DNA of 40,188 bases from the IMG/VR virus record IMGVR_UViG_2534681762_000013. One strand, written 5' to 3'. Below, piece by piece: positions 1 through 37,600 of the stretch. The notes under the pieces are model-generated. The model searched no databases. It was not told the DNA's origin and saw only the letters and a list, made by a program, of their open reading frames with translations. This stretch comes from a virus (lineage: Duplodnaviria; Heunggongvirae; Uroviricota; Caudoviricetes). Position 1 is the first letter of the stretch, and every line of letters starts with the position of its first letter. The translations under genes and the position numbers were made by a program.

Positions 1-483
1 ATGACGAAGAAAAAAGCACATAAACCTGGTTCAGCGACCATCGCGCTTAACAAGCGCGCCCGTCACGAATACTTTATCGAAGAAGAGTTCGAAGCGGGAC
101 TTGCCCTGCAAGGCTGGGAGGTTAAATCCCTGCGCGCAGGAAAAGCCAATATCAGCGACAGCTACGTCCTTCTGCGTGACGGAGAGGCATTTCTGTTTGG
201 CGCTAACATCACGCCAATGGCCGTGGCCTCCACGCATGTGGTGTGCGATCCTACCCGTACCCGCAAGTTACTTCTCAACCAACGCGAACTGGACTCATTG
301 TACGGTCGCGTCAATCGAGAAGGCTATACCGTAGTGGCGCTCTCCCTGTACTGGAAAAATGCCTGGTGCAAAGTGAAAATCGGCGTCGCCAAAGGTAAAA
401 AACAGCACGATAAACGTTCAGATATCAAAGAACGCGAATGGCAGGTGGATAAAGCACGTATCATGAAAAACGCCCACCGTTAA
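1..483 (+). CDS. smpB: SsrA-binding protein SmpB
   Basis: 160-aa ORF at the window start with the characteristic SmpB sequence ([28 protein letters not shown]...), directly upstream of the tmRNA gene as in enterobacteria. Confidence 0.96.
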
Positions 484-697
484 ACCTGCACTCCAATTAT
501 TGACCAGTTCCTCACCGCGCCTCCCTCTCCGGCGGCGCGAATGAACATCTTATTGGCTATCACATCCGACACAAATGTTGCCATCCCATTGCTTAATCGA
601 ATAAAAATCAGGCTACATGGGTGCTAAATCTTTAACGATAACGCCATTGAGGCTGGTCATGGCGCTCATAAATCTGGTATACTTACCTTTACACATT

Positions 698-1060
698 GGG
701 GCTGATTCTGGATTCGACGGGATTTGCGAAACCCAAGGTGCATGCCGAGGGGCGGTTGGCCTCGTAAAAAGCCGCAAAAAATAGTCGCAAACGACGAAAA
801 CTACGCTTTAGCAGCTTAATAACCTGCTTAGAGCCCTCTCTCCCTAGCCTCCGCTCTTAGGACGGGGATCAAGAGAGGTCAAACCCAAAAGAGATCGCGT
901 GGAAGCCCTGCCTGGGGTTGAAGCGTTAAAACTTAATCAGGCTAGTTTGTTAGTGGCGTGTCCGTCCGCAGCTGGCAAGCGAATGTAAAGACTGACTAAG
1001 CATGTAGTACCGAGGATGTAGGAATTTCGGACGCGGGTTCAACTCCCGCCAGCTCCACCA
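698..1060 (+). ncRNA. ssrA: tmRNA (transfer-messenger RNA)
   Basis: Starts GGGGCTGATTCTGGATTCGACGGG, contains the tag reading frame GCAAACGACGAAAACTACGCTTTAGCAGCTTAA (ANDENYALAA), and ends with the tRNA-like GGTTCAACTCCCGCCAGCTCCACCA; 363 nt. Confidence 0.95.
1016..1053. repeat. attL core: 38-bp direct repeat formed by the 3' end of ssrA
   Basis: ATGTAGGAATTTCGGACGCGGGTTCAACTCCCGCCAGC is repeated identically at 34447..34484; the two copies bracket the prophage. Confidence 0.75.
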
Positions 1061-1070
1061 AATAAAACAA

Positions 1071-1103
1071 GGGGTTACGTGAAAACGTAGCCCCTTTTTC
1101 TTT
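1071..1103 (+). terminator. ssrA intrinsic terminator-like hairpin
   Basis: GGGGTTACG / CGTAGCCCC stem followed by a T-run, immediately after the CCA end of tmRNA. Confidence 0.5.
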
Positions 1104-1177
1104 GGTAGTGGCGGCAAAATGGCGACAGAGTGTCGGACTGGCGGCAACAAAAAACCCGCCTTTAAAGCGGGTTCTGT

Positions 1178-1396
1178 TCAGAAACTCATGTGGCCTTGAC
1201 CACCTTTTCCAGGATGTGGCGGCGCAGAAGAAATTAGATTCGGTTTTATAATGTGCCGTACAAACGTTTCATGAGTAACGAACGTACAGCCACAATTTAT
1301 ATTTTGGCACTGGTTGTAACGTTCTTTTGTCGTAGCTGATACCTGAAAACTGCTTCTGGTATGTGCTGCATGACCGCACTCTGGACAGTTCATCAT
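1178..1396 (-). CDS. ogr: Ogr/B-type zinc-finger late transcription activator
   Basis: 72 aa from the internal Met (MMNCPECGHAAH...TTKERYNQCQNINCGCTF...), a C4 zinc-finger pattern like P2 Ogr; RBS before this Met; the ORF-track 88-aa version likely over-extends the N-terminus. Confidence 0.8.
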   Translation of the reverse strand: MMNCPECGHAAHTRSSFQVSATTKERYNQCQNINCGCTFVTHETFVRHIIKPNLISSAPPHPGKGGQGHMSF

Positions 1397-1464
1397 CGCT
1401 GTTATCCCACCACTCTTGCCGTAGTCGCAATAATGATACATCATTATTCAGTATTGAGAACCGA

Positions 1465-2565
1465 TTATTCAATTTCAAGATCACCAATCTTTACTTCAAG
1501 CTCCATGCTGGTCGTAAATCCATTATCCGGGCTGACAGAATGCGTCAGGGTGGTAATGGTCCACTCTGCATCATCGATCGGCTGCTTGAACCCTGTAACC
1601 TTCACCGGCATTTCCGTATAGAGATCAGCCCGCCCCTCAGCGAGCTGCAGGGAAAATGTAGCAACCCCACGCTGCAGACGTTCCCACTGCATTTTTGCTG
1701 CGCGCTCAGCATTGTTCCGGTTGGCGTAGGTACGATTAAGAACTAGCACGTTTTCATCCGTTCCCACCAGATAATCGCCCTGTTTTGCTTCCGGCTCTTT
1801 GGGTGTGGTGGTTTTCTTTCGACGACGCTTAACACTGGTTGTCTCTTTTTTCCTGGGTTCACGCGTATGCAACCAGCTGGCAATAACACCGGTATAGGCA
1901 CCACGATCAGCAAGGGTGAACCGATGACCGTCACCGGCTTTGCGAGTGATGGTGATAACCGGCAGCGGCTTGCCGCTCGCCGTTCTTCCCTGTCCCTGCC
2001 GGATAAACAGCAGATTCCCGTCCTTAACGGAAGCAATCGCCCCATACTGTCTCGCCAGTTTCATCAGAAAACTTGCATCGCTTTCATTGGTCTGGTCCAG
2101 ATGATCCAGCGCCTTATCCGTCAGGTCTTTACCCAGCGCCATTTTGAGGTTATGCCGGGCGGCTATTTCCTTTACCACCTCCCCCACCGTTGTCTGATGC
2201 CATGATTTTTCGCGCCGTGTATTGAGGGTTTCACGGAAATCTGCGCTACGCGCCCGGATGGTCAGCCGGTCAGGGGCACCGCTGTGTTCAATTTCATCCA
2301 CAGTAAAAGCCCCTTTAGGGAAAAGCGGCTGGCCTTTCCAGCCCAGCGCCAGCTGAATCACTGCCCCACGTCGCGGCAGGGCGATCAGCCCGTCGGCGTC
2401 GTCCAGCTCCAGATCAAGCTGGTCCGCTTCAAAGCCCCGGTTATCCGTCAGCGTCAGACTCATCAGGCGGGTATCCAGCACGGTCGTCACGTCCTTACCT
2501 TCAATGACGATACTGAAAGCCGGGCTTTTGCTGTTCAGATTCAGAAGATCAGAATTAACGTTCAC
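1465..2565 (-). CDS. D: P2 gpD-like tail protein (late gene D)
   Basis: 366-aa ORF placed between ogr and U as in P2; GTG start; overlaps the U stop. Confidence 0.8.
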   Translation of the reverse strand: MNVNSDLLNLNSKSPAFSIVIEGKDVTTVLDTRLMSLTLTDNRGFEADQLDLELDDADGLIALPRRGAVIQLALGWKGQPLFPKGAFTVDEIEHSGAPDRLTIRARSADFRETLNTRREKSWHQTTVGEVVKEIAARHNLKMALGKDLTDKALDHLDQTNESDASFLMKLARQYGAIASVKDGNLLFIRQGQGRTASGKPLPVITITRKAGDGHRFTLADRGAYTGVIASWLHTREPRKKETTSVKRRRKKTTTPKEPEAKQGDYLVGTDENVLVLNRTYANRNNAERAAKMQWERLQRGVATFSLQLAEGRADLYTEMPVKVTGFKQPIDDAEWTITTLTHSVSPDNGFTTSMELEVKIGDLEIE

Positions 2566-3047
2566 TGCAGCAATCCTCCTACCGTGTTCTTAATCCCCCC
2601 AATCGCAGAGGCAGCAGAGTCCTGCAGGTTGCTGAGCTGGTCACTCAGGCTCCCGAACATGTCAGACAGTGATTCATCAACCCGTTTGAGGGTGATCGTA
2701 AACTCAATGCGCCTGGGCATACCGCTGGCAAAAAACTCCGTCTTTGTCTGGCTCAGACTTTCAATAACAAACATGCCGTAAATGGTTCCGCTGCCTTCAA
2801 TCAAAGGCCAGGCTTTGCCCTGCTCTGCCATCAACTCCAGCGCCAGCAATGACAACCTGCCTCCGGTCACTTCCGGCAGCAGAACCCCGGACAGTGTCAG
2901 TGAATCATTATCCGGGCCAAGAAACTGCGTTGACGGGCGGCGATTCACCCGGCTGTTGGCGGCATGTCGCCAGCTGCGCTGATACTGCAGCTCCTGATAA
3001 GGGACAGTGCGCAGCATAAATACATATAAACCCAGCACCATCATCAT
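2562..3047 (-). CDS. U: P2 gpU-like tail protein
   Basis: 161-aa ORF starting MMMVLGLYVFMLRTVPYQELQYQRSW, matching remembered P2 gpU; start overlaps the T stop (ATGA). Confidence 0.85.
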   Translation of the reverse strand: MMMVLGLYVFMLRTVPYQELQYQRSWRHAANSRVNRRPSTQFLGPDNDSLTLSGVLLPEVTGGRLSLLALELMAEQGKAWPLIEGSGTIYGMFVIESLSQTKTEFFASGMPRRIEFTITLKRVDESLSDMFGSLSDQLSNLQDSAASAIGGIKNTVGGLLQ

Positions 3048-6000
3048 GATTCATACCCCCCCTGATCGCTGAAATTGCTGCGCGCTTTTGCCCTGGCCCT
3101 GCGTTCCCGCTCGTCAAGCTGACGTGCCACTTCACGGGCAATATCCTGCGCACTCTGTCCCGGCTGCGCGACGATATGAATGGGCGCATTTATCTCATAA
3201 CGAATAACTGACGGCGGGCTGTCAGCCTTCACTGGCTGCGTCTGGTATGCACTCGCAGGCAGACTGAACGGATGAAGCGGAACCGCTTCTGCAGGTGTCG
3301 CAGCAACCCCCATAACGCCTGCAACGACAGAGGCAAGCGCAGCAGTACGCCGCCTGCTGGTGACATTTGCCGGTCCGTTCACAATTTCAGGGCCATTTTC
3401 TCCAACAATGCCAAACTGCCCGCGTGGAATGATCCCGCCCGTGTCGTACATCCCTGCGTAAGCCGGGAACCCGCCTGGCGGCAGCACCACTTTGCCGTCA
3501 CTGTTCACCGTGGCGGATTGCTGTTGCGTGACCTGTGCAGGCAGTTTCGCCTTTGCCGCCTCCTTACTGACAATACCGAGCTTTTCCAGTAGCCATGACA
3601 CACCGGATTTAAGAGACTCCAGCGGGTGCATCACCATAGTCAGACCTTCCGCCAGCGCCTCACCAAACCGGCGCCCCATTGCAGCTGCGCTGTTCAGTTC
3701 TTCGGAAGTGGATTTAACCGGCGAAAGTAAATCGCTGAACCAGCCCCACAAGGCCTGCACCCTGTCACCAATCCACTGGAACATGGGCCTGAGCGGCTCA
3801 AAGGCGGCGCTGATTGGCGCTGCAGCGGCTTTGAACCCTTCCACCACGCCCCCCAGAAATGCACTGATGGGCTGCCAGTATTTCCACACAACCAGCGCCA
3901 CACCAGCCAGCGCAGCCACAACCAGCCCTATCGGACTGAGCAGCGCACCCAGCAGGCCGGAAATACCAAACAGCGCGCCGCGAAGTAATGCCAGCGGACC
4001 AGAAACAAGAAAACGCAATACGCCACCGGCAGCTGTCAGCCCACCACGCAACGCCGCCAGCGGGTTCATCACCATACCGATAACATTACGGATGCCTGAC
4101 ATACCGACACGGAACACGGCAAGCGGAGCACCTGCCACCGTTTTCAGTGCATTACCCGCTATTCCGGCTGAGCGACGCAGGGAATTAAGCGGGGCACTCA
4201 GTAACCCTACACTGCCACCGGATGACGCCATACCCCGACGCAACAGGGAAAGTGGCGCACCTGCCAGCCATGACAGGGCACCGCCAGTACGTGTTACCGC
4301 TGCAGCAACGGAAGGTAATGTTTTTACACCCAGCACAGACAGGCCAAACCGAATCACCGCAATCGGCCCCAGCACAGCAGCCACTGCCACGGCAAGTGTA
4401 CCCAGCCCGACAGTGACAGCCGCCGTAGCCGCCGCCACTTTCATCAGCGTGCCAGCCAGCACGGGATTCTGCTCCACCCAGCGACGCAGCGCCCCGGTCA
4501 CGCCCTTAACCATGCCCATAATATCCATCAGCGGCTGGCGCAACGTTTCCCCCAGACTGCTGAAAGCGTTCTGCGCGCCAGTCTTAACCAGCAACCACTG
4601 CGCAGACAATGAATCCTTGTTAATGTCGGATTCTTTCTGCATCGAGCCATTCGCACCACTGCCTGATGTGAGTTTCAGCTGACGCTGCAGCTCCGGCAGG
4701 TTGTTAGCCAGCTTTGCCGCATCATCGCCAAACTCTTTACCAAAAATCATTGTCATGGCTGACAGGCGTTTATCCTGCGGCAGATTGTTGACCTTCTCCA
4801 GAACCCGCTGAATGGTGCCCATGGCATCGGTGGTCATCTGCTTTTCAATCTCCGCAGGATTGAGTTTCAGCAGATTCATACCTTCAAAGAAGCGCTTACT
4901 TTGCATGGTGGCAATGGACAGTTCACGCACCATGGCATTAGAGGCGCTGGAGGCAATTTCCGGGGCAGCCCCAAGAGAAAGGAATGTTGAACCCAGCGCA
5001 GCAGCTTTTCGGAAGTCAAGGCGGTCAGCCACGCCCCCCATACGCTGCAGGACGTTGATAATGTCCCCGCCCTTTGACATGGCGTTATCGTCCAGGTAGT
5101 TCAGCGCATCGCCCAGTTGTTCAATATTGCGCGTCGGCACTTTATAGAGCTGCGCGATTTTCCCCAATCCTTCCGCCAGCTCATCGGCGGGCAGCTCAAA
5201 GGCCGTTGCAGCTTTTGCCGCCGTGGATGCAAAGGCCAGCAGGTCACGTTTCTGGTCCTCAAAGAGATCGTCCTGGCTGGTCACGCCCATACGCGCGCCC
5301 CCTTCAACCAGCGCGGCATAATCTATAGCGCCATTCTCCATCGGCAGCTGCTCACTGGCAGCCTTAATGGCATCCTGCATGTCATAAAACTGTTTTGTAC
5401 GGTTGCCGTTATCGTCCCGCAACCCGTTTACCTGCTTTGCCACGCCTTTCATGGCATCTTCCATGCTGGCGTAGCTTTTCACTGCAGCCAAAACCGGCGC
5501 ACCCATTGCCAGCCCGGCAGCTGTAGTGGTGGCTCCGGCTCCGGCTATGCGATCCCGAACCTCAAGACGGCGCGAATACTGATCACGAACCGCATTCATT
5601 CTCGCCTGCTGTTCACCCAGGTGTTTCAGAGATTTTTGCTGTCGCTCCAGTGCCAGTCGGGTTTCATCGGCGTTCTGCCGTAGCTCACGCTGTGCGCTGC
5701 TCAGTTTCTTTGTATCAAGCCCTGCCTCATTCAGCGCAAGGCGCTGACGCTGCACTGACTGACGCAGCCCGTTATATTTTCCCTGTAAATCGGTGACGCG
5801 ATTTTTAGCCTGCTCAAGCAGCCTGGCCTGAGCTGCCGTCGGGCGGTTGGTCGCAGTAAACTGCGTGGCGAGTTTTGCCGCTTCTTCGCGGGCGGCTTTA
5901 AGGCTGTTACCTGTGACTGCTAGCTGCGCGCTGGCCTTACGGAAGCCATCAATTCTGCCCGCCTGAGAATCTAACTCTTTCAGCCGGGCGCGGCTTTGCT

Positions 6001-8374: not shown

Positions 8375-8932
8375 TTAATCACACAATGTCGCAGGATATT
8401 TGCGGTATAACGTCGAGATCCCCACATCAAACATTAAAGCAACCCGCTGCCGTGTTTCACCTGCAGCAAGTAACCTGCCAGCCTGTGCCCATTGCTCTGG
8501 CGTCAGTTTTGGTCTTCGCCCTCCAATCCTGCCTTTAGCTCTTGCGGCTTCCAGTCCCGCACGGGTTCGTTCCACTATCAACTCGCGTTCCATCTCCGCC
8601 AGTGCCCCCATAACGTGAAAGAAAAACCGCCCCATTGGTGTACTGGTGTCTATGCTGTCAGTCAGACTACGGAAATTAACTCCGCGCTGCCGGAGTTCTT
8701 CTATCAGGGTAACAAGGTGTCGCATGCTTCTTCCCAGCCTGTCGAGCTTCCATACAACCAGCGTGTCTCCCTCTGATAACGTCCTGAGCAACCTTTTTAG
8801 CCCTGGTCTGTCTGCTGTTTTTCCGCTCATTTTGTCTTCAAAAATTAGCTCACATCCTGAGCGTTCCAGTGCATCACGTTGCAAAGCAGTGTTCTGGTCA
8901 TTTGTTGACACCCTCACATAGCCTATTTGCAT
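8375..8932 (-). CDS. serine DNA invertase (Gin/Hin/Cin/Pin family)
   Basis: 185 aa from MQIGYVRVSTNDQ (catalytic Ser motif) with C-terminal HTH; adjacent to a segment flanked by hix/gix-like inverted sites. Confidence 0.88.
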   Translation of the reverse strand: MQIGYVRVSTNDQNTALQRDALERSGCELIFEDKMSGKTADRPGLKRLLRTLSEGDTLVVWKLDRLGRSMRHLVTLIEELRQRGVNFRSLTDSIDTSTPMGRFFFHVMGALAEMERELIVERTRAGLEAARAKGRIGGRRPKLTPEQWAQAGRLLAAGETRQRVALMFDVGISTLYRKYPATLCD

Positions 8933-9017
8933 GAAAAATAACCTCTTAAAAGATAAACAGCATGCCATGATTTTCAGATGCTGGAATCATTTGCTACGTA
9001 ACTGATTCAATACTGGC

Positions 9018-9043
9018 TTTGGCTAAATGTTGGTTTGGGAGAA
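9018..9043. other. invertase crossover site A (hix/gix-like 26-bp site)
   Basis: Its reverse complement TTCTCCCAAACCAACATTTAGCCAAA shares the 14-bp half-site TTCTCCCAAACCAA with site B at 11512..11537 in inverted orientation; resembles hixL (TTCTTGAAAACCAAGGTTTTTGATAA). Confidence 0.55.
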
Positions 9044-9403
9044 GCGGCAAAACGAAATGTGGGAACAGGGGAAAATCAGATACCGGACATGGCTTCATTT
9101 AGTGGGGTGAGGGATTATTACGGAAAACAACTTTTGCCAGGAGGGTTGATACTTCAGTGGCTGACGATTCCATCAAGTGCAGCAGCCAAAGCTGTAACAC
9201 TGAATAATGGTAATTATCAGCTGTCAGGCTATAAATGGCCCCAGTCATTTGGTGTCCTGTTTGCTGTGTTTGCTACAAAAGTTTCTGGCTCGACTAACGA
9301 AGCATATGCAATCTCAGTTAATCGTCACTCTACCGATGTAATTGTCATCTGGAATGCCCGTAAGGCTGATGATGTCCACATTTTAGGAATTGGGGAATTA
9401 TGA
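9035..9403 (+). CDS. alternative tail-fibre C-terminal (variable) segment, currently in the silent orientation
   Basis: The open frame begins inside crossover site A with no independent start context; it would fuse in frame to the constant part of H after inversion, as in Mu G / P1 C segments. Confidence 0.55.
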
Positions 9404-9819
9404 CAATGAAATGGTCCCCATCTGTTCAGGGATTTTTCTCTGAAAATAACAGCGATATTCCCGATGATGCTTTCGATATTGAAGATGCTCTTTATTATGA
9501 ACTTATGAATGGTCAGAGTACGGGGAAAATTATTATCAATAACCCGGATAACTACCCTGTACTTACTGAATATCCAGCGAAGACACAGGAACAGGAAATA
9601 GCTGAAGCGGAGGGAATGAAAAGTATACTTATTGAACAGGCCAACGAATACATGAACAGTAAGCAATGGCCTGGTAAAGCCGCTATTGGTCGTCTGAAAG
9701 GTGAGGAACTGGCGCAATATAATTTGTGGCTGGATTACCTGGACGCACTGGAACTGGTCGATACTTCCGGTGCGCCAGATATTGAATGGCCTACGCCTCC
9801 GGCAGTTCAGGCCAGATGA
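9400..9819 (+). CDS. tail fibre assembly protein (Tfa), paired with the alternative fibre segment
   Basis: 139 aa ending ...[15 protein letters not shown], the conserved Tfa C-terminal motif; start overlaps the upstream stop (ATGA). Confidence 0.75.
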
Positions 9820-10002
9820 CGTCCGGCGCGGTGCTGGTATCTGATTCCATCACCGCGTCGATATTACCAACATCATATTCAGTCATTTCCGGTTCCGGTG
9901 GTGCTATAAACTCTCCGTCAGAATAGAACCAACCGACGCCTGCATCTGGTGATGCTGTCAACTTACTGATTTAGTGTATGATGGTGTTTTTGAGGTGCTC
10001 CA

Positions 10003-10278
10003 GTGGCTTCTGTTTCTATCAGCTGTCCCTCCTGTTCAGCTACTGACGGGGTGGTGCGTAACGGCAAAAGCACCGCCGGACATCAGCGCTATCTCTGCTC
10101 TCACTGCCGTAAAACATGGCAACTGCAGTTCACTTACACCGCTTCTCAACCCGGTACGCACCAGAAAATCATTGATATGGCCATGAATGGCGTTGGATGC
10201 CGGGCAACTGCCCGCATTATGGGCGTTGGCCTCAACACGATTTTACGTCACTTAAAAAACTCAGGCCGCAGTCGGTAA
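10003..10278 (+). CDS. insA: IS1 InsA
   Basis: 91 aa [39 protein letters not shown]..., recognised IS1 InsA; GTG start. Confidence 0.93.
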
Positions 10279-10700
10279 CCTCGCGCATACAGCCGGGCAG
10301 TGACGTCATCGTCTGCGCGGAAATGGACGAACAGTGGGGCTATGTCGGGGCTAAATCGCGCCAGCGCTGGCTGTTTTACGCGTATGACAGTCTCCGGAAG
10401 ACGGTTGTTGCGCACGTATTCGGTGAACGCACTATGGCGACGCTGGGGCGTCTTATGAGCCTGCTGTCACCCTTTGACGTGGTGATATGGATGACGGATG
10501 GCTGGCCGCTGTATGAATCCCGCCTGAAGGGAAAGCTGCACGTAATCAGCAAGCGATATACGCAGCGAATTGAGCGGCATAACCTGAATCTGAGGCAGCA
10601 CCTGGCACGGCTGGGACGGAAGTCGCTGTCGTTCTCAAAATCGGTGGAGCTGCATGACAAAGTCATCGGGCATTATCTGAACATAAAACACTATCAATAA
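10197..10700 (+). CDS. insB: IS1 InsB frame (transposase made as InsAB' fusion by frameshift)
   Basis: 167-aa frame ...[37 protein letters not shown]...; the A6C frameshift motif TTAAAAAAC lies at 10252..10260. Confidence 0.9.
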
Positions 10701-10830
10701 GTTGGAGTCATTACCCCTGCATCTATATGATCAATATTTATAATTTCGCAGTTAGAGAATAAATCACCCTCTCCATCCCAGATAATAATATTTTTCACCA
10801 CGCCATGTTCAATCAGAGCAAAATTACTCA

Positions 10831-12573
10831 TCAGGCATACTCCTCAACAATAACTATTCCCGGGGCACCGTCACCTCCCGATTGAGCCTCACTTCCGGCA
10901 GGTGCGCAGGCTCCGCCTCCGCCAGCACCAAAGCCCTCAGCTTTACCACCACCACGTCCGCTGAATGATGAAGAACTTGCACCACCTATACCGCCTGAAC
11001 CTAGTGGTGTATCCCCCCCGGTACCACCTGCAACAGCTTTAACAGAGATAACCATTGCTCCTGGTGTTTTTGCACTACAGCGAAATGTTCTTAGTACAGT
11101 ACCGGACGATGTCGGACTGGCACCCCATGAAATACCCTGAATATATGATGTGTTTGCAGATGCTCCCCCCGCGCCACCGCCTGTACCACCCGGTGCAGTT
11201 ATCAGGGAACCGAAATAAGTTGTGCCACCTTCACTACCTGAATTTCTTCCGGCTCCCCCCCCTTTACCTGCAGCACCGATAATAACGTTGACTTCGAAAT
11301 CATTATCAACCTCGAAAAATGCTTCAATAAATGCACCGCTCAATCCAGCTCCGGCTGTTGCCTGCTGATTTTCTGTTGTTTCAGGAACCCCACCGCCGCC
11401 GCCACCGCCACCAGAGGCAATGACCCTTATCTTTTTTGTCCCTGGTGTTGGGATATATTTTCCAGAGCTTTTAAAAATATTCGTGTTTAACAAACGACCA
11501 GAGAATCTGGCTTCTCCCAAACCAAGGTATTGTAGAAGGGCTGAAACACTTTTCCCGCTGAGGTTAGTCAAAGTGGCATCGAGGGGCTGTTTCCCCGCCA
11601 GCGCGTTCATCACTGTTGTCGCAAAGTTAGGATCATTCCCCAGCGCAGCTGCCAGTTCATTCAGTGTGTCCAGCGCCTCCGGCGATGAACCAACCAGCCC
11701 GGCAATAGCTGCCTTCACAAATGCTGTAGTGGCAATCTGCGTATTGTTCACAGTCTGCGCCGCAGTCGGAGCCGTTGGCGTTCCGGTCAGGGCTGGGCTT
11801 GCCAGTGGTGCTTTCAGTGCCAGCGCATTGTTAATGGTGGTACTGAAATTCGGGTCATTATTGATAGCTGCCGCAATTTCTTTCAGCGTATCCAGCGTTG
11901 CCGGTGCGCCACCTATCAGGGCAAGAATAGCGGCCTGTACAAAGGCTGTACTGGCAATCAGGGTGCTGTTGTTTCCTGCCGGTGGCGTTGGCGTTTTAGG
12001 CATGCCTGTCAGAGTCGGACTGTCTTTTGGTGCATATTGCGAATGAGGATCAACCGCAGCAAGATGCTTTGCCATCAGGTCATCCACATACACCTTAAGT
12101 TCCAGCACCTTATCATCCACATATTTGCGGGTTGCCAGAACCACAGCGGGGTCAATTTTCAGGGTGATGTTATCCGTGCTGCTGGTAATCAGTACCATTC
12201 GCACGGTCTGCGTGCGTCCGCTGCCCTCCGCCAGCTTCGGCTTGTAGCTCTCCGGGCAGTTTCCCACAGCAATTAGCGCACCTGTTTCATCAAACAGGCC
12301 GACTTCACGAATCCACCACCCGCCCTCATTTTCCGGGATCACCTGCTCAGCAATAATCTGGCTGCTGTTCTGTGGGTCGATATACAGCATATTCAGCGCT
12401 GCGCGGCGTTCCTCAGCCACTAACGCGGTCTGTTGCGCGTTGGGTGTGGGCAGCATACCACCACCGCTGCCCACCGCCATATGGGTAATTTTTAGTGGGA
12501 CACCGAGCGCGGCGGCGCTTACCAGTTTCGCCGCGCCGATATCCGTCAGCAGGGTGTAAAATTTTGCGCTCAT
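10831..12573 (-). CDS. H: tail fibre protein (gpH-like) with constant N-terminal part and a Gly-rich variable C-terminal part
   Basis: 580 aa; N-terminus MSAKFYTLLTDIGAAKL...MAVGSGGG matches remembered P2 gpH; crossover site B lies inside the gene at ...LQYLGLGEA. Confidence 0.85.
   Translation of the reverse strand: MSAKFYTLLTDIGAAKLVSAAALGVPLKITHMAVGSGGGMLPTPNAQQTALVAEERRAALNMLYIDPQNSSQIIAEQVIPENEGGWWIREVGLFDETGALIAVGNCPESYKPKLAEGSGRTQTVRMVLITSSTDNITLKIDPAVVLATRKYVDDKVLELKVYVDDLMAKHLAAVDPHSQYAPKDSPTLTGMPKTPTPPAGNNSTLIASTAFVQAAILALIGGAPATLDTLKEIAAAINNDPNFSTTINNALALKAPLASPALTGTPTAPTAAQTVNNTQIATTAFVKAAIAGLVGSSPEALDTLNELAAALGNDPNFATTVMNALAGKQPLDATLTNLSGKSVSALLQYLGLGEARFSGRLLNTNIFKSSGKYIPTPGTKKIRVIASGGGGGGGGVPETTENQQATAGAGLSGAFIEAFFEVDNDFEVNVIIGAAGKGGGAGRNSGSEGGTTYFGSLITAPGGTGGGAGGASANTSYIQGISWGASPTSSGTVLRTFRCSAKTPGAMVISVKAVAGGTGGDTPLGSGGIGGASSSSFSGRGGGKAEGFGAGGGGACAPAGSEAQSGGDGAPGIVIVEEYA
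11512..11537. other. invertase crossover site B (hix/gix-like) inside H
   Basis: TTCTCCCAAACCAAGGTATTGTAGAA; inverted partner of site A. Confidence 0.55.
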
Positions 12574-15015: not shown

Positions 15016-15105
15016 TTGAAATGATTCGTACGAACCAGCATAATTGTGTTATAGCTGGTACAAACAGTTGATAAGTTCGACTCAACCAAAACAAGGAGTA
15101 AGTTG

Positions 15106-16359
15106 ATGTATAAAATACAAAGCATCGCTATCAATGGTTTTTGGCAAAGATTAAATGCTCTTTGCTCTTTTAATGATGATGTAAACATCATCATTGGAAG
15201 GAATGGAACCGGCAAAACAACTTTTATGAATATTTTGCATTCAATTTTATCAATTGACCTTGATGGCATTAACAACAATGATTTCAATAGTGCCGAAATA
15301 AAACTAAAGGACAAAAAGAAAACTAAGACAATAAAAATTAAGAAAATCGAGAGTGATACATCACCGTTCTCTAAAATAGAGTATCAACTTTCATCAAAAA
15401 AACATACCATCCGACTATTCAACGCCGATGACAGAAGAATCTCCCTCAGTTATAGACGCAGAGCACAAGAAGAGACTGAGGAGTTAAGAGCAGAATTAGC
15501 AAAACTGGTTTCACTCTCATCTTTATCCGTCTATAGACTAAGGAATAGTGACGACTTTGAGGTTAGAGACAAATACGGCTCTCGCTTTATCAACCCTGTC
15601 GATTATAAACTATCAGAATTAATGCAGGAATTAACAAAATATCAACTTGAATTATCTCAACGAGCGAGAGATATTGCATTAGAACTTCAAAAAGAAGTTT
15701 TAGCATCTATTCTATATAGTAAAGATGATATTGATGATAAGGCGTACAACATTCAATTTAACAAGGAGGAAGAAAAACAAAACCTTTTAAGTGCGTACAC
15801 ACAACTAAACGCTATTGATATGAATGTCCGTCGGAAAATAAATTTCCATGTTGACACTATTGATCACACCATTGCAGAATTAAAACAAAATAAAAAAGAT
15901 GGTTTTGACATCCGCTCAATTGAAGCGCTAAGAAAGACACAAAAAATAATTAGAATGTCTTTAAAATCTAAAGAAAAAACATCTTTAGTTTTCGCTCCCA
16001 TTGAACAATTTTTAAGTATTTTAAAAGAATTTATTACTGATAAGGAATTTGACTTTCAAGGCGGAATACTTTCCATAAAGAATACTTACGGACCAATAAT
16101 TCAGGAAAATTTATCTTCAGGTGAGAAGCAATTACTTATTTTATTCATAGAAACCCTATTACAAAGAGAAAAACAATATATTTTCCTAACAGATGAGCCT
16201 GAACTCTCCCTACATATTCAATGGCAAAGAAACATTATCCCAGCAATCAAAAAACTCAATCCCAATGCACAAGTAATAGCTGCCACACATTCTCCAGAAG
16301 TAGCTTCAAAATACAGGAGTGCAATTTTTAACATGGAGAAACTTGTCAATGTCCAATAA
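15106..16359 (+). CDS. ABC/OLD-family ATPase (AriA-like), first gene of a two-gene cargo operon
   Basis: 417 aa from the ATG with an AAGGAG RBS 7 nt upstream; Walker A GRNGTGKTT, ABC signature-like LSSGEKQ, Walker B IFLTDEPE, His-switch ATHS; strongly AT-rich codon usage unlike flanking phage genes. Confidence 0.8.
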   Translation: MYKIQSIAINGFWQRLNALCSFNDDVNIIIGRNGTGKTTFMNILHSILSIDLDGINNNDFNSAEIKLKDKKKTKTIKIKKIESDTSPFSKIEYQLSSKKHTIRLFNADDRRISLSYRRRAQEETEELRAELAKLVSLSSLSVYRLRNSDDFEVRDKYGSRFINPVDYKLSELMQELTKYQLELSQRARDIALELQKEVLASILYSKDDIDDKAYNIQFNKEEEKQNLLSAYTQLNAIDMNVRRKINFHVDTIDHTIAELKQNKKDGFDIRSIEALRKTQKIIRMSLKSKEKTSLVFAPIEQFLSILKEFITDKEFDFQGGILSIKNTYGPIIQENLSSGEKQLLILFIETLLQREKQYIFLTDEPELSLHIQWQRNIIPAIKKLNPNAQVIAATHSPEVASKYRSAIFNMEKLVNVQ

Positions 16360-17206
16360 TGAGATTCGAACAGATAACTTTAATTGGTCTGACGAGGCGG
16401 AAAATGTTATCAGCATGTTTTATGATGCTGATATCATGGTATATGTTGAAGGTGAGGATGATATTGGATTTTGGGAAATAGTTTTCAAAAAAAATGGTCG
16501 ACTAAGTGTTGAAGTGCAAGAAGTTGGAGGGTGTGAAGCATTAGAACCTTATATTGAGCGAATCACATCAGGACAAATAAACGCAATTGTTGCCCGCGAT
16601 GCAGATCTGAATCATTTTTCATCCAACTTAGTAAATCATACAAACATCATCTATACAAAAGGTTACTCAATTGAAAATACTATAGTCGATGAGAAAGTCC
16701 TATCCCGTGTGTTAAAACACATGGGAAGATACAGTGCCAAAGAAATCCAAGGAATAAATATAAACTCCTGGCTATTAGAGTTTTATAACAATATTGAAGA
16801 CCTAATTGCCTTAGATATTTACAATCATTTAAATCAGCGTGGCTATTCCGTAGTAGGTGATTCATGCGATAGATTTATGCAATCAAAAAACTCTTACAAA
16901 ACATGTCAAGATAAGATAAATGCTTATATTCAAACCCTTCCTGATGATTTCAGAAATGTAGGGTTAGCAGAAAAAAACAACATTCAATTTCCTGCCAACA
17001 CTTGCATAACGCATTGGATAAAGGGGCACTTTCTATTCTCAGCATCATTAAGATTCATAACCAATTACTTAGCTAAAAATGAGAGAAAAACTGCAATATC
17101 AAAAGATAGTTTTTATTCAAATATGCTAACGGCTTTTGAATTATTCTTTACTGAAGAACATGCGGATTATGATTACTACAATCAAAAAATATCACTAATT
17201 TCATAG
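16349..17206 (+). CDS. DUF4435/TOPRIM-like protein (AriB-like), second gene of the cargo operon
   Basis: 285 aa from MSNNEIR; start overlaps the gene-1 stop by 11 nt with a GGAG RBS; acidic motifs VYVEGEDD and ARDAD consistent with a TOPRIM-type metal site; AT-rich. Confidence 0.72.
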   Translation: MSNNEIRTDNFNWSDEAENVISMFYDADIMVYVEGEDDIGFWEIVFKKNGRLSVEVQEVGGCEALEPYIERITSGQINAIVARDADLNHFSSNLVNHTNIIYTKGYSIENTIVDEKVLSRVLKHMGRYSAKEIQGININSWLLEFYNNIEDLIALDIYNHLNQRGYSVVGDSCDRFMQSKNSYKTCQDKINAYIQTLPDDFRNVGLAEKNNIQFPANTCITHWIKGHFLFSASLRFITNYLAKNERKTAISKDSFYSNMLTAFELFFTEEHADYDYYNQKISLIS

Positions 17207-26062: not shown

Positions 26063-26095
26063 AGGCCGCTAATCATGCGGCCTTAATTTATTTAC
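26063..26095. terminator. bidirectional hairpin terminator between Q and the convergent small-gene operon
   Basis: AGGCCGC-TAATCAT-GCGGCCT stem-loop with AT/T-rich flanks. Confidence 0.45.
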
Positions 26096-26361
26096 CAATT
26101 TCGACCAGGAGCCTTTAACCATGTAGAACAAGAATAATTTAATGAGGCCCAAGATTTTTGTAAACGAGCAACAAAGATCACATCGTTACTATCAACATTT
26201 GCTTTAAGTCCATCACGCAATTGCGCTGCAGAAAGCGTGGTATCGATTAACCAAAAGGATTCTAAATGTTTGCAGTAGTCAAACTTTTTGAGATAGGTAA
26301 AAACATCATCATAGTTCTTGCCTGGAGCTTTCAAGTCATACGTTACACAATAGACCGCCAT
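26092..26361 (-). CDS. hypothetical 89-aa protein (weak VapD/Cas2-like N-terminal pattern)
   Basis: AT-rich ORF with a GGAG RBS, 3 nt downstream of the zinc-ribbon gene; the N-terminus MAVYCVTYDLK... loosely recalls the first strand of VapD/Cas2-fold proteins. Confidence 0.5.
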   Translation of the reverse strand: MAVYCVTYDLKAPGKNYDDVFTYLKKFDYCKHLESFWLIDTTLSAAQLRDGLKANVDSNDVIFVARLQKSWASLNYSCSTWLKAPGRNW

Positions 26362-26364
26362 CTT

Positions 26365-26547
26365 TTATGCTCCGCACTTTTTATCATTTGGAGAACATCT
26401 TAATCGACGACATCTGCGACAATATGATTGTGGAATCAAACGTTCCCCTTCCATCATTCTAAAACCAAATACCTCTTCAATTTTGTTCAGATCACCACTT
26501 GCAGCGACCCCACAACAAGGACAATAAGCTTTAACTTGATACGGCAT
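26365..26547 (-). CDS. hypothetical 60-aa C4 zinc-ribbon protein
   Basis: CPCC...CRRC cysteine pairs; start taken at the Met with a GGAG RBS; AT-rich; forms an operon with the 89-aa gene. Confidence 0.45.
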   Translation of the reverse strand: MPYQVKAYCPCCGVAASGDLNKIEEVFGFRMMEGERLIPQSYCRRCRRLRCSPNDKKCGA

Positions 26548-26647
26548 GTTTATCTCCATTTCACATGTTTTGAGTAGAGTAATCTATCCGTCCAAGCAAA
26601 AATGAGACATAGCTCTTGAAAGCTGTCCCAAACCAACCAGCGCGCGC

Positions 26648-26666
26648 TCGTATCCCCGCCACGCCT
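26648..26666. other. candidate cos (cohesive end) site
   Basis: The reverse complement of TCCCCGCCACGCC at 26652..26664 is GGCGTGGCGGGGA, matching the start of the 186/P2 cohesive-end sequence as remembered; position after Q fits P2 organisation. Confidence 0.35.
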
Positions 26667-26868
26667 GCCCGCTTTGTGTAGTGGTTTTCATGCACCTGCA
26701 TGACATAAGCAAAAGCCCGCCAGTTCTGGCGGGCCTGAGCAAAAACGATCCTCAAACGATCATGCGATTTCATGCGGCATAGACATGCACAACAGCGCTA
26801 ACGCCTCGCGTGGCTCGTTGTTCAACCTTGCGGACGGTAAAAACCAGTTTTATCGTCCGCAACGTTCG

Positions 26869-27102
26869 CTAATGTAACCAGCTGTCGTCCTCCCAGACCT
26901 GCTGCATTATTTCCATCACTCGCTTTTTATCTTCATCCAGTTTTAACCCGCTCAGCTCTACGCCGTTGGCGCTGCCCTTACGGATACGAATTGCTGTTTT
27001 GGGATACAGAGGGCGCAAATTACGGTAAAGCTCGGATTCAAGGGCGTCCAGTGTAGCCTGGCTAATCTTCTGCTCTTTATCGATCATTATTTCAATGCGC
27101 AT
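26869..27102 (-). CDS. DinI-family protein
   Basis: 77 aa MRIEIMIDKEQKISQATLDALESELYRNL...EIMQQVWEDDSW, the DinI fold pattern; downstream gene of the LexA-box operon. Confidence 0.8.
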   Translation of the reverse strand: MRIEIMIDKEQKISQATLDALESELYRNLRPLYPKTAIRIRKGSANGVELSGLKLDEDKKRVMEIMQQVWEDDSWLH

Positions 27103-27463: not shown

Positions 27464-27760
27464 TCAGTACCACTGACGCCATTTGTCATCTTCCTGCAGA
27501 CGGTGGTTGCGGTAAAAAATACGCAGCCCGGCACCTGACGGAATACTGCCGCCGCGCAGAAGCAGGTCAATCTCTGACTCGCTACCATCGAACCCTCTGG
27601 AACTCAGTTCTGCCTCAAGCTGCAGGCGCTGCTGATCCGAAATAGTCTGTTTATATGCTTTTTTCCGCTTCGGTTTTACCAGCCTTAACCTGGCTGTCAG
27701 CTCCCGCCGTTCCTTCTGGCCCATGTTGTGGAGATATTCCTGCAGCTCCCTCTCATCCAT
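27464..27760 (-). CDS. hypothetical protein downstream of A
   Basis: 98-aa ORF whose 5' end overlaps the A stop; basic central region; no recognisable motif. Confidence 0.35.
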
Positions 27761-29871
27761 AGTTTTAATATCGGGTAAATCCCCCCTGATTTGTTCAGAT
27801 TTTCAACAGGGGGACAGTTATTGCCACGAGTCCAAGGGGCGCAAGCGCCCTGGTCGGCTGCCGCCTCCTGAACATCAACGGCCTTACGAACCTTTTTCCA
27901 CTTCACCGCGTGCGTGCAAATCTTGCCCTCTGCAATCGGGGACCAGATGCCATAGATACGGATACCGTGATCGCCGTAGGCGCTCGGTTCGTCGTTAAGC
28001 TCATAAGCCGTGCGGACAAGGTGATGTTTGCGGGGAACCAGCACGCCGCCCTGCTTCATGATGTAGGTGGCAAAGCAGCCCGCATCAGCCGCCGCCAGTA
28101 CCGCATCCAGACGCGGATTATCCAGTACCGGCGCACCCGCTTTGCGTTCGCCCTGCACTCTCGCCACCTGACCAGCCAGCAAGCGCAGCTCGCGGTATGC
28201 CTGACGCCCTGGAATACCAAAGAAACGAAATTGCTGGACACGGTGCAGTGACGCCCAGGCGCTGACATGCTCGGCACTGTCACGCAGCGATCTGCCGGTT
28301 TCTTTGCTGATTTCTTTAGCCAGCCCACGCCCGTCGATGTTCTTGCTGATGTATTTGGCGATGTAGCTGGTCGGCGTGCCCTTGCGCGGGTTGATTAGCT
28401 CGGATTTGAAGCGCGGCCCGGTGTTGGTGCCCAGCTCCTCGCGGTCTTCACGGATGGCAAACTTGCGCAGCATCGCAGTGATGAAACGGCGGTCTTTTTT
28501 GCGCATGAAGCACAACAGATGCCAGTGCACTGTGCCGTCATGGTGCGGCTCCGCAACGCGGACGCCATACCAGCGCAGCCCGGCCTTGTGCATTGCCTTG
28601 CGGAAAGCGGCGAACGTATCAACCAGATAGTCACTGCTCTGCCGGACTGTGGCACTGGTCCACTTCGGATTAGGTCTGCCGTTGTTGAGGGTTGCGTGGA
28701 AGCGTGACGGGCAGGTGATGGTATAGAACACTGCGCAGTCTCCGCGCATTTCCGCTATCAGCTCCAGTCCCTTAACACAGGCCATCATTTCATTACGGCG
28801 GTGTGCCGGGTTGCTGTTACTGGCGTTCACCACGTCTTCCATGTCCAGCGTGTCACCGTCTTCGTTGACCAGCTCATGTGAGCGGAAGAACTCCAGCGAT
28901 TTGCGGCGCTGCTCGCGCTTGTGGATCACGGCTTCATAGCTGACATACGGGGACGCTTTTTTGTTGACCAAGCAGACAGCACGCAGCTGTTCCTCCCGCC
29001 ACTCGCAGCGCATCTGCCACAATTTGCGATACCACCAGTCCGCGCACAGCATCCGCGCCAGCGACGGTGGGATCAGTTCATAGGGCACCGGCTTGCGTCG
29101 ACGCTTTTTGCGGCGTAACTGCTCAAACGCAGGCGGGATGATCTCAAGGCGCATCGCCTCTGCTGCAACCCTTTCCCATGCCTGGCGGATTTCTTCTGGT
29201 TTAACATCGTCGCTGACAAACAGATCACCGCAGGCCGCATCAAGACACATGCTCATATGAGCCGCAACCAGCGTGGAAAGACGCTTGACCTGATCCTGAT
29301 TCATTTCAGGCAGTACCAGCAGCCCCTCCAGCCCGTCATGACTTGCCATGAACCGGAAAGAGGCAGACACCTGACTGTCACGCACGCGCTCCAGCCGCTC
29401 AAGACAGGGCCTAATTGTTTCGCGCAGGTAGCGGGAATAGGCTTTTGCTCTGCCCAGGCTATGGAAATATTTAATCCGCTCCAGCAGAGGCTTGCTGATA
29501 TGGGACGGCATGGCGTTAACGTCAGCCAGAATGACCAGATCGGGATTAAAACGCTGCTGCTCGCGCGCCATTTTGGCACGACTAATCAGCCGGTCCTGCT
29601 CCATTTCGCGCTGGACAGGATCACGGGATTCATTGAAGAAATAGCGTTCCCAGACCTCATCGCTCAGCGTCTCACGGCGCAGCTGCTCCTGCTCGTTATC
29701 CGCAGCGTAAAGAGCAATCAGGTTTGAAAGCGCAGACCCCGGCGCAACTTCCGCCGGGTCCAGATATGGGTTAACCGCTTTTTTGGGGTTATTCCATGAA
29801 AAGGCCACGGCGGCCTCATTCGAGCCGCCGGTGGTTGGTGCATTATGTAATGTGAATTTACTCACTGCCAC
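27697..29871 (-). CDS. A: replication initiation endonuclease gpA-like (rolling-circle)
   Basis: 724 aa with the conserved [13 protein letters not shown] tyrosine motif and HWHLLCF histidine cluster. Confidence 0.9.
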
Positions 29872-33303: not shown

Positions 33304-34329
33304 ATGACCATCAGAAAACAGCCAAACGGGAAATGGTTGTGTGAGTGCTACCCTAGCGGGCGCGATGGCAAGCGCGTGCGCAAGCAATTTGCGACGAAAG
33401 GCGAGGCCATAGCATTCGAAAACTTCACAATGGATGAAGTGAACAAAAAGCCATGGCTAGGCGAAAAGGATGATCGGCGCCAATTGTCAGAAGTAATTAA
33501 GCAGTGGCATTCACTTTACGGACAGACTCTTGCTGACCCCAAGCGCCTGATGGCAAAACTTAACATTATTTGTAATGGCCTGGGTGATCCCATTGCCTCG
33601 GAGCTGACTGCCGGTGACTTTACAAAATACCGTGAAGCACGCCTAAAAGGTGAAGTCAAAAATGAAGATGGCTTGCCTATGTCGCCAGTTAAGCCCCGCA
33701 CGGTAAACCTTGAACAACGCAACCTATCATCAGTTTTTGGCACGCTGAAAAAGCTGGGCCACTGGTCAGCCCCCAACCCACTCGCCGGGCTTCCAACATT
33801 TAAAATCGCAGAGGGGGAGCTGGCGTTCCTGGCGCCGGAAGAAATTAAACGCCTGCTGGATGCCTGCGCTGATTCAGAAAACCCCAGCCTGCTCATGATT
33901 GCAAAAATCTGCTTAGCTACCGGCGCCCGCTGGAGTGAAGCCGAAAACCTGCAGGGCCATCAGTTATCTAAATACCGAATCACCTACACCAAAACAAAGG
34001 GCAAGAAAAACCGAACGGTTCCTATATCTCAGGCGCTGTATGACGAGTTACCAAAGAACCGAGGGAAGTTATTCACGCCATGCAGAAAAGCCTTTGAGCG
34101 TGCAGTCAAGCGGGCAAGCATTGACTTGCCAGAGGGCCAATGCACCCACGTTCTGCGCCATACTTTCGCCAGTCATTTTATGATGAACGGCGGAAATATA
34201 CTGGTACTGCGCGATATTCTGGGCCACGCCGATATTAAAATGACAATGATTTACGCCCACTTCGCACCCGACCACCTGGAAGATGCAGTGACAAAAAACC
34301 CGCTTCACAATCTCAACTGGAACCGTTAA
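33304..34329 (+). CDS. int: tyrosine integrase (P2/186 Int family)
   Basis: 341 aa with the C-terminal catalytic region HVLRHTFASHFMMNGGNILVLRDILGHADIKMTMIYAHF (R...HxxR...Y); adjacent to attR. Confidence 0.9.
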   Translation: MTIRKQPNGKWLCECYPSGRDGKRVRKQFATKGEAIAFENFTMDEVNKKPWLGEKDDRRQLSEVIKQWHSLYGQTLADPKRLMAKLNIICNGLGDPIASELTAGDFTKYREARLKGEVKNEDGLPMSPVKPRTVNLEQRNLSSVFGTLKKLGHWSAPNPLAGLPTFKIAEGELAFLAPEEIKRLLDACADSENPSLLMIAKICLATGARWSEAENLQGHQLSKYRITYTKTKGKKNRTVPISQALYDELPKNRGKLFTPCRKAFERAVKRASIDLPEGQCTHVLRHTFASHFMMNGGNILVLRDILGHADIKMTMIYAHFAPDHLEDAVTKNPLHNLNWNR

Positions 34330-34646: not shown

Positions 34647-37600
34647 TCAGAACGACCAGTTCACACCAGCTACCCCGTTCCACGGGGATTCCACACCGGC
34701 ACCATGGCTATACCCCACCCCAAGATGCCCGCTTAACGTACTGCTGAATGAGGCTTTAATACCTGCCTGGTATATTCCACGTCTGCCCGACAAATCATTG
34801 ACGAAATTACCGTCACTATTCACTTTCACCCGGTTATCATCGACAAATTCTTTGCGCACAGCCGCCTTCAGCCACGGCTCAACTTCCATACCGTTCCCCA
34901 GACGCATGTTGTAACTCAGCGTTGCACCCAGTTCACGATATAAACTGCGGGTATCGACTGATTTCGATTCCATGCCATTGGATAAATGATATTCAGGGTT
35001 ATCAGCGGTGAACCCCCGTTAACGATGCATACGGCGTCAGGTTCCAGTTACCATCGGTAAATCGCATCCCGGTTTCAATGTGACCGCCCAGCCCGTTGCT
35101 GCGATAACTGCCGTTGGCGGCTCCACCGCTGCCAACCGTGGAGTCGCGAGCTTCGGTACCTGCTAATACCAATAAATTACCGCCATTTTCCAGCAACATA
35201 TTGGTCGCTAAATTGCCGGAAATGGAAAAAGTGCCGTACTGGTGAGTACCGCTGATTTCAATACCGTTAGCCGTGCTCGTCTGGAGAGCGGCACCGCTGT
35301 TCTGGACGATATCTGTCGCTTTGCCATTATCGTTAACTGTCAGCGTACCGCCTTCATTGATCTTTGTTTTTATTGCCTCTCCGTTAGCTGAAACTGTTTG
35401 TATTCCGCCGTCGTTAATCGTTGTCTCATTCGCCACCCCCTCGACGATTTGTTCGCCGCCGGTGAGCGTCGTGCCTGTCGCAGTGGCTTTTGTTTTGACG
35501 ATCTCCCGTCCGCCCGTATTGACCTGTGTTTTGTCAGAAGAGGTGTCTGACTCCACGGTTAACACGCCGCCATTTGCCAGCAGGATATTGTTCGCCGCAC
35601 CCTGCTCGATGCTGAACGCGACGCCATCCGCGCGTGTTCCTGTGACCCGCGTCGCCCTGGTGGTTGCAACCAAAGCGCCCTGGCTACTCTGCTGTATCCC
35701 CGTTGCGCTGCCTTTCTCCCGCACATCGAGTGTGCCGCCGTCATTAAGCACCGAGTTTTCAGCCAGACCGCCCTCATTAACTACCTGTGAACACCCATTA
35801 ATAATGGAACCTTCCGCTATCCCGTTTGCCATAATTTGTTGTAGGCCAGAGACGATATCGGTATTGATCGCCTTACCATAATTCTGAACAGTTTGTGTGC
35901 CGCCATTGATGTGCGTTTTGTCAGTTGACCCACCATCAACAATTTGTTCACCACTTTCAATATTTGCCTCAGTGGCTAAACCATATACCGTTTGCTTGCC
36001 ACCTTTGATATTTGCTTTATCAGAAGTGGCACTGGCATATATTGTTTGGGTGCCAGCACTATTAAGTACAGTGCCAACATCTTTTCCATAAACATCCATT
36101 TTGCCGTTGGCATTAATAATCGTATCAACTGCCCGGGAACCAGTGACGACTGTTAATGAGCCAGCGTTTTCCAGCACTACATTTTTAGCTTCTGAATTCC
36201 TGATGTAGAAAGCATCACCATAACTGTTGGTTCCTTCGATAAGGGTTCCGGAAGTTGTGGAAGCAATTAATGCGCCGCCGGATTGTTGCTCAACATGCTT
36301 AGCCTCACCACCGTCCTGAACCTCCAGAACGCCACCATTATTAAGTCTGGTGGTATCTGTTTTAGCCTCCTTCTGGACAATCAGCTTACCGCCAGCATCA
36401 ACGGTAGTATTTTTCGCCGAGGTTTTAGCCACTACCGTCAGTTCGCCGGTATTTTCCAGCACAACATAATTAGCCTCCCCTCCGGTAATAGTGAAGTGAG
36501 AGAGCTTGTTGTATCCTTCAATATCAGTCCCTGCGCCCGTGTTGGCAACTAAAGCACTGCCCGTCTCCTGGTTAACCCCATGTGCAATACCGCCGGTATA
36601 GACAATCAGCGAGCCTCCGGCGCTAATATTGCTGCCAATTGCCGTACCATCTTTCTCAACAACTTGCTGGCTCCCGGAGGATATAATTGTTGTGTCAGCT
36701 TTCCCACCGCTTTTGATATTTTGCGTTCCGCTGTTGATATTGGTGCCTGTGGCTATGCCATAATTATTAAGATTCTGTGTGCCACCATTAATTATGGTAT
36801 TTGTCGCGTTTCCTGCAACATCCATAACCCCGCCATTATCTATTCGGGTCGCATCAGCTTTAGCATTCGTTAAAACTGACATTGTTCCTTTATCTTTAAT
36901 AATCGTCTTGTTTGCGGAATGAGATACTTCTAAATGGCCTCCATTTTCCAGCAACACATTGTCTTCCACTTTATTGTGGATGGAGAATGCACCTTCACTA
37001 TTCGTACCGCTCACCGTCGTACCGTTAGTGTTTGTTTTTAAAATTGCACCATCGTGCTGGGTAACATTTGTTGCCGTACCACCACTAACATCAAGCACGC
37101 CACCGGAATAAACTTCAATAACATCCGAGGTGCTGGTGTTATCAACAATTTGCGTGCCACCAGAATAGATCTGCGTAATTTTTGCCGTTGACTTACTATT
37201 CAGAGACTGAGTTCCGCCTTCAATCGTCGTGTCCAGCGCACGGCTCTCATATACTCTTTGCTCACCGCCATTTTTAATGGTTGTTGTTTCTACTGTGCTC
37301 TGTTCAACATACTGTCGACCACCATTTATGGTTGTGTTCGTTGCCAGACTTCCTTGTACTACGTCCTGAGAGCCAGACTTATTTATCGTTGTACCATCAG
37401 CATGCCCTTGAACTTTTACTATCTGGCTACCACCATCAATGAGTATTCCATTCGCACTCCCTCCCTCTACGCGTGAAGCACCGCCCTTAATTGTCGTTCC
37501 ATTGCTGATACCCCCTTTATAAACGTCCTGATTGCCACTCTCGATTGTCGTACCTGTGGAAATACCCCCGTCATGAATTGACTGTCTGCCACCGTTAATG

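Follow-up and report, generated by a model that had tools for sequence, protein, structure and literature searches.

IS1 insertion in the putative short chaperone gene of an expressed glycine-rich tail-fibre tip in a Fels-2-like prophage

The DNA analysed here is a stretch of 40,188 nucleotides (hereafter the window) that starts at smpB and the tmRNA gene (698-1060) and carries a P2-family prophage of ~33 kb with the P2-type gene order, at the far end of which lie a cI repressor gene and the integrase gene (33304-34329). Judged from its sequence, the locus is a Fels-2-like (Felsduovirus/P2 family) prophage integrated at ssrA. The late region shows ~91% nucleotide identity over three quarters of its length to Yersinia phage MLG42, SopEPhi and Fels-2, and the structural, lysis and regulatory genes are all full length when compared with those of the viable phage MLG42, with the sole exception of replication gene A. 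In that gene (27464-29871, minus strand), a 1-nt deletion near 27762-27775, TCAGGGGG[T]GATTT, splits the 802-aa protein into ORFs of 724 aa and 98 aa and cuts off the last ~100 residues. The deletion is seen neither in MLG42 nor in any of the eight best E. coli relatives (0 of 8), and it is either a real second lesion or an error of the draft assembly.

Several other features of the window deserve mention in their own right. A PARIS-like defence pair made up of AriA (an AAA_15/AAA_21 ATPase; 15103-16359) and AriB (DUF4435; 16319-17206) is encoded on the plus strand, opposite to the baseplate gene V and the tail-completion gene S that border it, and the corresponding place is empty in Fels-2 and MLG42. 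In the cargo region, which varies among P2-like phages, a cluster of small ORFs (26092-27102, minus strand) separates portal gene Q from replication gene A; it includes a DinI homologue (26872-27102) and ORFs of 64-89 aa without an assigned function. Outside the prophage and past the integrase (35002-40188, minus strand), a 1009-aa AIDA-repeat autotransporter-like ORF and a DUF5507/DUF5508 protein are encoded, and the presence of these two beyond the integrase suggests that the prophage abuts another island.

As in Fels-2, the gene order of the fibre locus is FI, invertase, invertible segment and H, with the invertase lying between the sheath gene and the segment. The enzyme is an intact serine DNA invertase of the Gin/Pin/Cin type (185 aa; 8375-8932, minus strand) with Resolvase and HTH_7 domains, and it matches the Gin structures 3uj3 and 4m6f over residues 1-182 (E 7e-88). 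Perfect inverted repeats of 16 bp (9030-9045 and 11510-11525) delimit the segment and form the shared inner half of two 26-bp crossover sites. The fibre-side site is TTCTCCCAAACC AA GGTATTGTAGAA (11512-11537, plus strand), and the invertase-side site, read on the minus strand, is TTCTCCCAAACC AA CATTTAGCCAAA (9018-9043). This layout agrees with that of the Gin/Cin/Pin/Hin segments (Mu G, P1 C, e14 P and Fels-2), in which a serine invertase adjoins the segment, the 26-bp sites are inverted and have a central AA, and a constant N-terminal part of the fibre is joined to either of two tips, each with its own assembly gene. Unlike those segments, the one in the window is enlarged by an IS1 element (~2.50 kb with IS1 and ~1.72 kb without it), has a Gly_rich_2 tip with an unusually short partner, and carries an uncommon outer half-site on the invertase side, where CATTTAGCCAAA differs from the CGTTTATGAAAA of most relatives at 4 of 12 positions.

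From the invertase start to the crossover site, the leader (window 8933-9043) exceeds that of most relatives by ~30 bp, the comparison covering the loci L001, L002, L011 and L015 and Fels-2. Eight sister prophages in E. coli share the backbone of the window, and their invertase and leader region is 99.0-99.6% identical to the window's. Both orientations of the segment occur among these eight, and in two of them, XH992 and L3Cip3, the segments face opposite ways. The idea that the unusual outer half-site has frozen the switch was therefore rejected. Comparison of the e14-like loci L001 and L025 likewise shows a precise inversion of the same segment. Taken on its sequence, the switch machinery of the window looks functional.

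The expressed tail-fibre gene H (580 aa; 10831-12573, minus strand) is made up of a constant part (~11526-12573) and a glycine-rich variable tip (~10831-11525), and in the present orientation it reads in frame across the crossover into this Gly_rich_2 tip. Pfam places Phage_tail_fib at the N-terminus of the protein (210 bits) and Gly_rich_2 at residues 374-577 (34 bits), and the constant part is 96% identical to the H protein of phage MLG42 over residues 1-353. The silent alternative fibre tip, Sv' (122 aa; 9035-9403, plus strand), matches the C-terminus of phrog_2557 and gives a weak match to Gp53-like_C. It is accompanied by a silent tail-fibre assembly gene, tfa' (139 aa; 9400-9819, plus strand), that is intact and is recognized both by Pfam (Caudo_TAP, 83 bits) and by PHROGs (phrog_188, 4.8e-51). 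When the segment is inverted in silico, Sv' is fused in frame to yield an intact 473-aa fibre, and the intact 139-aa Caudo_TAP protein follows it. Both orientations give an in-frame fibre together with an assembly gene, and of the two partner genes only that of the present orientation is broken.

The interruption is a complete IS1 of the IS1A family (768 bp; 9948-10715, plus strand). The element lies between the 16-bp inverted repeats and crossover sites, and so within the invertible segment, where a preliminary description of this DNA had placed it using coordinates that all prove exact. Its terminal inverted repeats (~9948-9970 and 10693-10715) are imperfect and match each other at 17 of the first 23 positions. 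It encodes insA (91 aa; 10003-10278, plus strand), with the Pfam domains Zn_ribbon_InsA (76 bits) and HTH_Tnp_IS1 (107 bits), and the insB' frame (10197-10700, plus strand), with DDE_Tnp_IS1 (260 bits). An A6C slip site is present at 10254-10260, and a -1 frameshift made there in silico gives an open 232-aa InsAB' transposase. In its 768-bp length, imperfect terminal repeats, insA/insB' organization, A6C -1 site and 9-bp target duplication, the element is like IS1A of E. coli, and it is identical to annotated IS1A copies at 767 of 768 positions (99.9%). It is unlike them at a single position, a private T for C at IS1 position 11 (window 9958) in the left inverted repeat. The Pfam domains and this identity bear out the earlier reading of a complete element with insA, the insB frame, the A6C motif and terminal inverted repeats, and the copy is predicted to be transposition-competent and of the IS1A type. 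The preliminary description had also remarked that the insertion brings IS1 homology into a recombining segment. The homology is there; the window has no second IS1 copy with which the one at 9948-10715 could recombine.

Immediately outside the element are the two copies of a perfect 9-bp target-site duplication, CCTGCATCT, the left one at 9939-9947 and the right one at 10716-10724, as had been reported. Both strands of the 40-kb window hold just these two flanking copies of the 9-mer, and a match of two 9-mers at fixed positions has a chance of ~4^-9. The target adjoins AT-rich DNA with a GC content of 20%, and targets of this kind are known to be preferred by IS1.

The source assembly is a draft (AQEJ01000018.1). 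IS1 is a classic cause of misassembly; among 5,426 complete E. coli genomes, 4,951 contain elements of the IS1A type, with a median of ~11 places per genome, and a repeat-induced misjoin could in principle have created the apparent insertion. We regard such an assembly artefact as extremely improbable. The duplication is perfect and is flanked exactly by the two halves of one gene, contig AQEJ01000018.1 runs continuously through both IS1 junctions, and this IS1 copy is distinguished by its private base at position 11. The same junction found in the NCBI assembly GCA_000355115.2 is also found in a separate Logan assembly of SRR447116, which stops 29 bp into IS1.

When IS1 and one copy of the repeat are deleted in silico, an 87-aa ORF is recovered on the minus strand, running from 10831 to 9791. 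This is the continuous frame beginning at the H stop codon that had been proposed earlier: its ATG start codon overlaps the stop codon TGA of the 580-aa fibre gene by one base (TGATG), and a GAGGAG motif is located 8 nt upstream of it. In the window the gene exists as two fragments. The 5' fragment (10694-10831, minus strand) is now an ORF of 45 aa, in which 40 native residues are followed by MTPTY and a stop codon from the right end of IS1. The 3' fragment (9791-9947, minus strand) contains residues ~40-87 with the conserved GW.Y..F..PP motif and the Tfa C-terminal motif, and has an overlap of 29 nt with the 3' end of tfa', which is convergent to it. The ORF is broken at codon 39/40, within a conserved beta-domain. 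Predicted strands 1-3 are kept in the 45-aa stub, the last two predicted strands and the entire C-terminal tail are lost from it, and the nearly invariant residues G41, F49 and P52 fall past the break. Because IS1 cuts the conserved beta-domain in this way and removes two of its strands and these three residues, it is very likely that the insertion has abolished the function of the 87-aa protein.

The empty site can be seen in relatives. The whole IS1-free segment is present in nine complete E. coli genomes with 97-99.6% identity. Four IS1-free E. coli loci were examined more closely (L001, L002, L025 and L026), two of them e14-like, a third P2-like and the fourth next to other baseplate genes, and the 87-aa ORF is intact in all four, with 86 or 87 of its 87 residues identical. 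Alignment with relatives lacking the element had been suggested as a check on the preliminary description, and here the reconstructed frame does match intact homologues, up to the 100% identical ORF of L025; the counterpart in L011 is 93% identical. In the two loci checked for the target site, L001 and L002, the 9-mer CCTGCATCT is single-copy and its flanks are identical. RefSeq labels for the ORF in the four loci are inconsistent, ranging from 'hypothetical protein' (WP_021533315.1) to a 72-nt partial 'phage tail protein' pseudogene, and the glycine-rich tip is frequently unannotated in RefSeq relatives.

The insertion itself has a narrow distribution. A megablast search of 5,426 complete E. 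coli genomes did not find the IS1 junction, and the exact 34-nt junction had no match in species-representative genomes. Since the junction is missing from all complete E. coli genomes searched, the insertion allele appears to be private to one strain lineage. This distribution bears on whether the insertion could have been selected, either by crippling virion infectivity in one phase or by altering a host-beneficial role of the prophage fibre or chaperone proteins. A precedent exists, although it is only a precedent, in the host-protective inversion products of cryptic-prophage fibre segments: one study reports that PinQ-driven inversions of such segments can protect the host by blocking T2 adsorption (PMC12529663). 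IS1 or IS1 remnants are also found near members of the 87-aa gene family elsewhere, namely in Kp4865-2 and HH107. However, those IS1 cases are at other positions and look like decay, and the preference of IS1 for AT-rich-adjacent targets is sufficient to account for the recurrence of IS1 near such genes. Given also an allele confined to a single strain lineage, with the junction in none of the complete E. coli or species-representative genomes, selection for the insertion seems very improbable to us.

The identity of the interrupted gene needs more care than that of the element. It had been called Tfa-like, and the label is appropriate in part: the protein is paired with Gly_rich_2 tips and is homologous at both ends to full-length Caudo_TAP proteins, but it is not a canonical Tfa, being below the Pfam threshold and without the helical domain. 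Against Caudo_TAP (PF02413) it scores 17.3 bits, under the cut-off of 22.1, with only residues 68-86 matching positions 113-131 of the profile, and the 88-aa protein P0003 gives no Caudo_TAP match. In PHROGs, the N-terminal part goes to phrog_14370, a family of unknown function, and the C-terminal tail yields weak chaperone matches. BLASTP aligns the 87-aa protein at both ends with P0006 (E 9e-19), a 132-aa E. coli protein that scores 67 bits against Caudo_TAP. P0006 and gp089 of Goslar (the 138-aa Tfa of this jumbo phage; 73 bits) share the N-domain and the C-terminal end with the 87-aa protein, and each of them follows a Gly_rich_2 fibre. In common they have the motif M..YA.IENG.V.N...WD...GW.Y...EFIAPPEPE at the N-terminus and the motif DTSTAPD.IWP at the C-terminus. 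What the 87-aa form does not have is the helical hairpin of ~45 residues present in the middle of P0006, Goslar gp089 and tfa', and its structure model contains no helix of four or more residues. Because the helical domain is missing, the 87-aa protein is not a full Caudo_TAP member. The predicted fold of its putative N-terminal beta-domain matches only tail-fibre chaperones in the PDB, Pam3 gp25 and Mu U.

Compared with the Caudo_TAP proteins lambda Tfa, Mu U/TfaMu and P2 G, the 87-aa gene is alike in lying directly behind the fibre gene and in conserving DTSTAPD.IWP. Pam3 gp25, to which its fold is predicted to be similar, also serves a glycine-rich fibre tip. The 87-aa protein is unlike all of them in that the helical C-domain of ~45 aa is absent and in that many of its relatives consist of the N-domain alone. 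One report states that the helical C-domain of the tail-fibre chaperone trimerises, with the role in trimerisation drawn from cited work on Mu, and that the fibre is largely insoluble in the absence of its chaperone (PMC9608196).

The N-domain family is large. An exhaustive representative search, performed where a word-indexed protein search gave six relatives, identified 126 clusters at 50% identity (P0007-P0130), of which 60 have a length of at most 80 aa, 18 of 81-120 aa and 46 of 121-160 aa. The stand-alone N-domain proteins of at most 80 aa have no Pfam annotation, and in PHROGs they belong to phrog_14370, again without an assigned function. Those of 59-63 aa in L015-L018 and L021-L023 begin at the stop codon of a Gly_rich_2 fibre, and the same is true of all stand-alone members whose context could be read, on P2-like, Mu-like and other backbones. 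The pairing of the N-domain with a Gly_rich_2 fibre recurs in Goslar, L006, L011 and L013, as well as in L015-L018 and L021-L023. Since the gene pairing is conserved, the homology reaches Caudo_TAP proteins at both ends and the predicted fold appears to match chaperones only, the split gene is best assigned as the cognate partner of the expressed glycine-rich tip, and its product would be predicted to work like the N-domain of Tfa.

The shortness of the protein can also be taken to mean that the gene was dead before IS1 arrived. It could be what was left of a Tfa gene after an in-frame deletion had taken out the central helical domain, in which case IS1 changed nothing and the tip is either self-sufficient or was already non-functional. 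The ~45 residues of the conserved helical hairpin that are missing relative to P0006, Goslar gp089 and tfa' would fit this, as would the score below the Pfam Caudo_TAP threshold; in strains G1/2 and JNEC-KY208, PGAP annotates a partial pseudogene at the 3' end of the 87-aa gene, and in strain 89-3156 the adjoining glycine-rich tip is itself frameshifted. Against this reading, the ORF is intact and conserved at 99-100% in four IS1-free loci that are independent of one another, and at 93% in L011. Even shorter stand-alone N-domain proteins (at most 80 aa) account for 60 of the 126 clusters and are found at Gly_rich_2 fibre stop codons in several unrelated phage backbones. Their abundance and placement therefore point to a maintained gene class rather than a sporadic wreck, and we consider it unlikely that the 87-aa gene was already dead.

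Taken together, we consider it highly probable that an IS1 with its 9-bp duplication has split the cognate short-form chaperone gene of the expressed glycine-rich tip in this Fels-2-like prophage, and that this is a case of ordinary IS-mediated decay. The element would have transposed into codon 39/40 of the 87-aa gene and made its usual 9-bp target duplication. The gene lies directly downstream of the glycine-rich tip now joined to the constant part of H, to which it would be translationally coupled, and its product would combine a small beta-domain, of a kind that binds the fibre tip in solved homologues, with the conserved C-terminal tail of Tfa. Virions made in the present orientation would then have misfolded fibres or none, and inversion by the intact invertase would again provide an intact pair of fibre and Tfa. 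A switch between two host ranges may in this way have become a switch between one good and one bad state. That the prophage is fibre-defective until inversion is a reasonable inference, as the preliminary description had suggested. The fibre defect is perhaps not the sole block to phage production because of the deletion in gene A, if that deletion is real; the prophage may then fail to be induced regardless of its fibre. The insertion is best read as neutral or mildly deleterious decay of the prophage mediated by an IS element.

Our literature search did not turn up a description of IS1 within an invertible fibre segment like this one. A comparable locus is that of Klebsiella phage Kp4865-2 (OK490418, an unverified record; L013 1780-4420), a P2-family phage that is alike in having a glycine-rich H with a 60-aa N-domain protein at its stop codon, and in carrying IS1-family sequence in the same locus, next to the invertase. 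It is unlike the window in that the IS1 sequence is a truncated remnant (positions 307-768, 87% identical) located downstream of the small gene, and in that no second tip or Tfa ORF is among the ORFs listed between the small gene and the invertase. A single recognisable crossover site is left in Kp4865-2, beside the invertase. The arrangement suggests that half of the invertible segment was lost in association with IS1, and it may represent a later stage of the same decay route.

The insertion of IS1 into a prophage gene is a well-known and ordinary event, a kind of damage that is already known, and the present case has little import beyond this strain, although it offers a clean textbook example of how one arm of the host-range switch of a phage is disabled by an IS element. 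Only one thread is mildly new, a family of very short proteins that accompany glycine-rich fibre tips as their partners. Our search of the literature found no paper on such short partner proteins, and annotation pipelines overlook or mislabel the small partner gene. We put forward, tentatively and with more doubt than conviction, that proteins of ~60-90 aa consisting of the N-domain only, or of the N-domain with a short tail, form an undescribed class of minimal chaperones for Gly_rich_2 tips that do without the helical trimerisation domain, the part regarded as the conserved core of Tfa proteins; the IS1 allele would then be a natural knock-out, through which a host-range switch between two receptors becomes one that turns virion infectivity on and off in a phase-variable manner. 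The gene behind a Gly_rich_2 tip consistently encodes a small N-domain protein, of which there are long (Caudo_TAP) and very short versions. This pairing could guide the engineering of Gly_rich_2 tips in phages and tailocins, and it raises the question of what a minimal Tfa needs.
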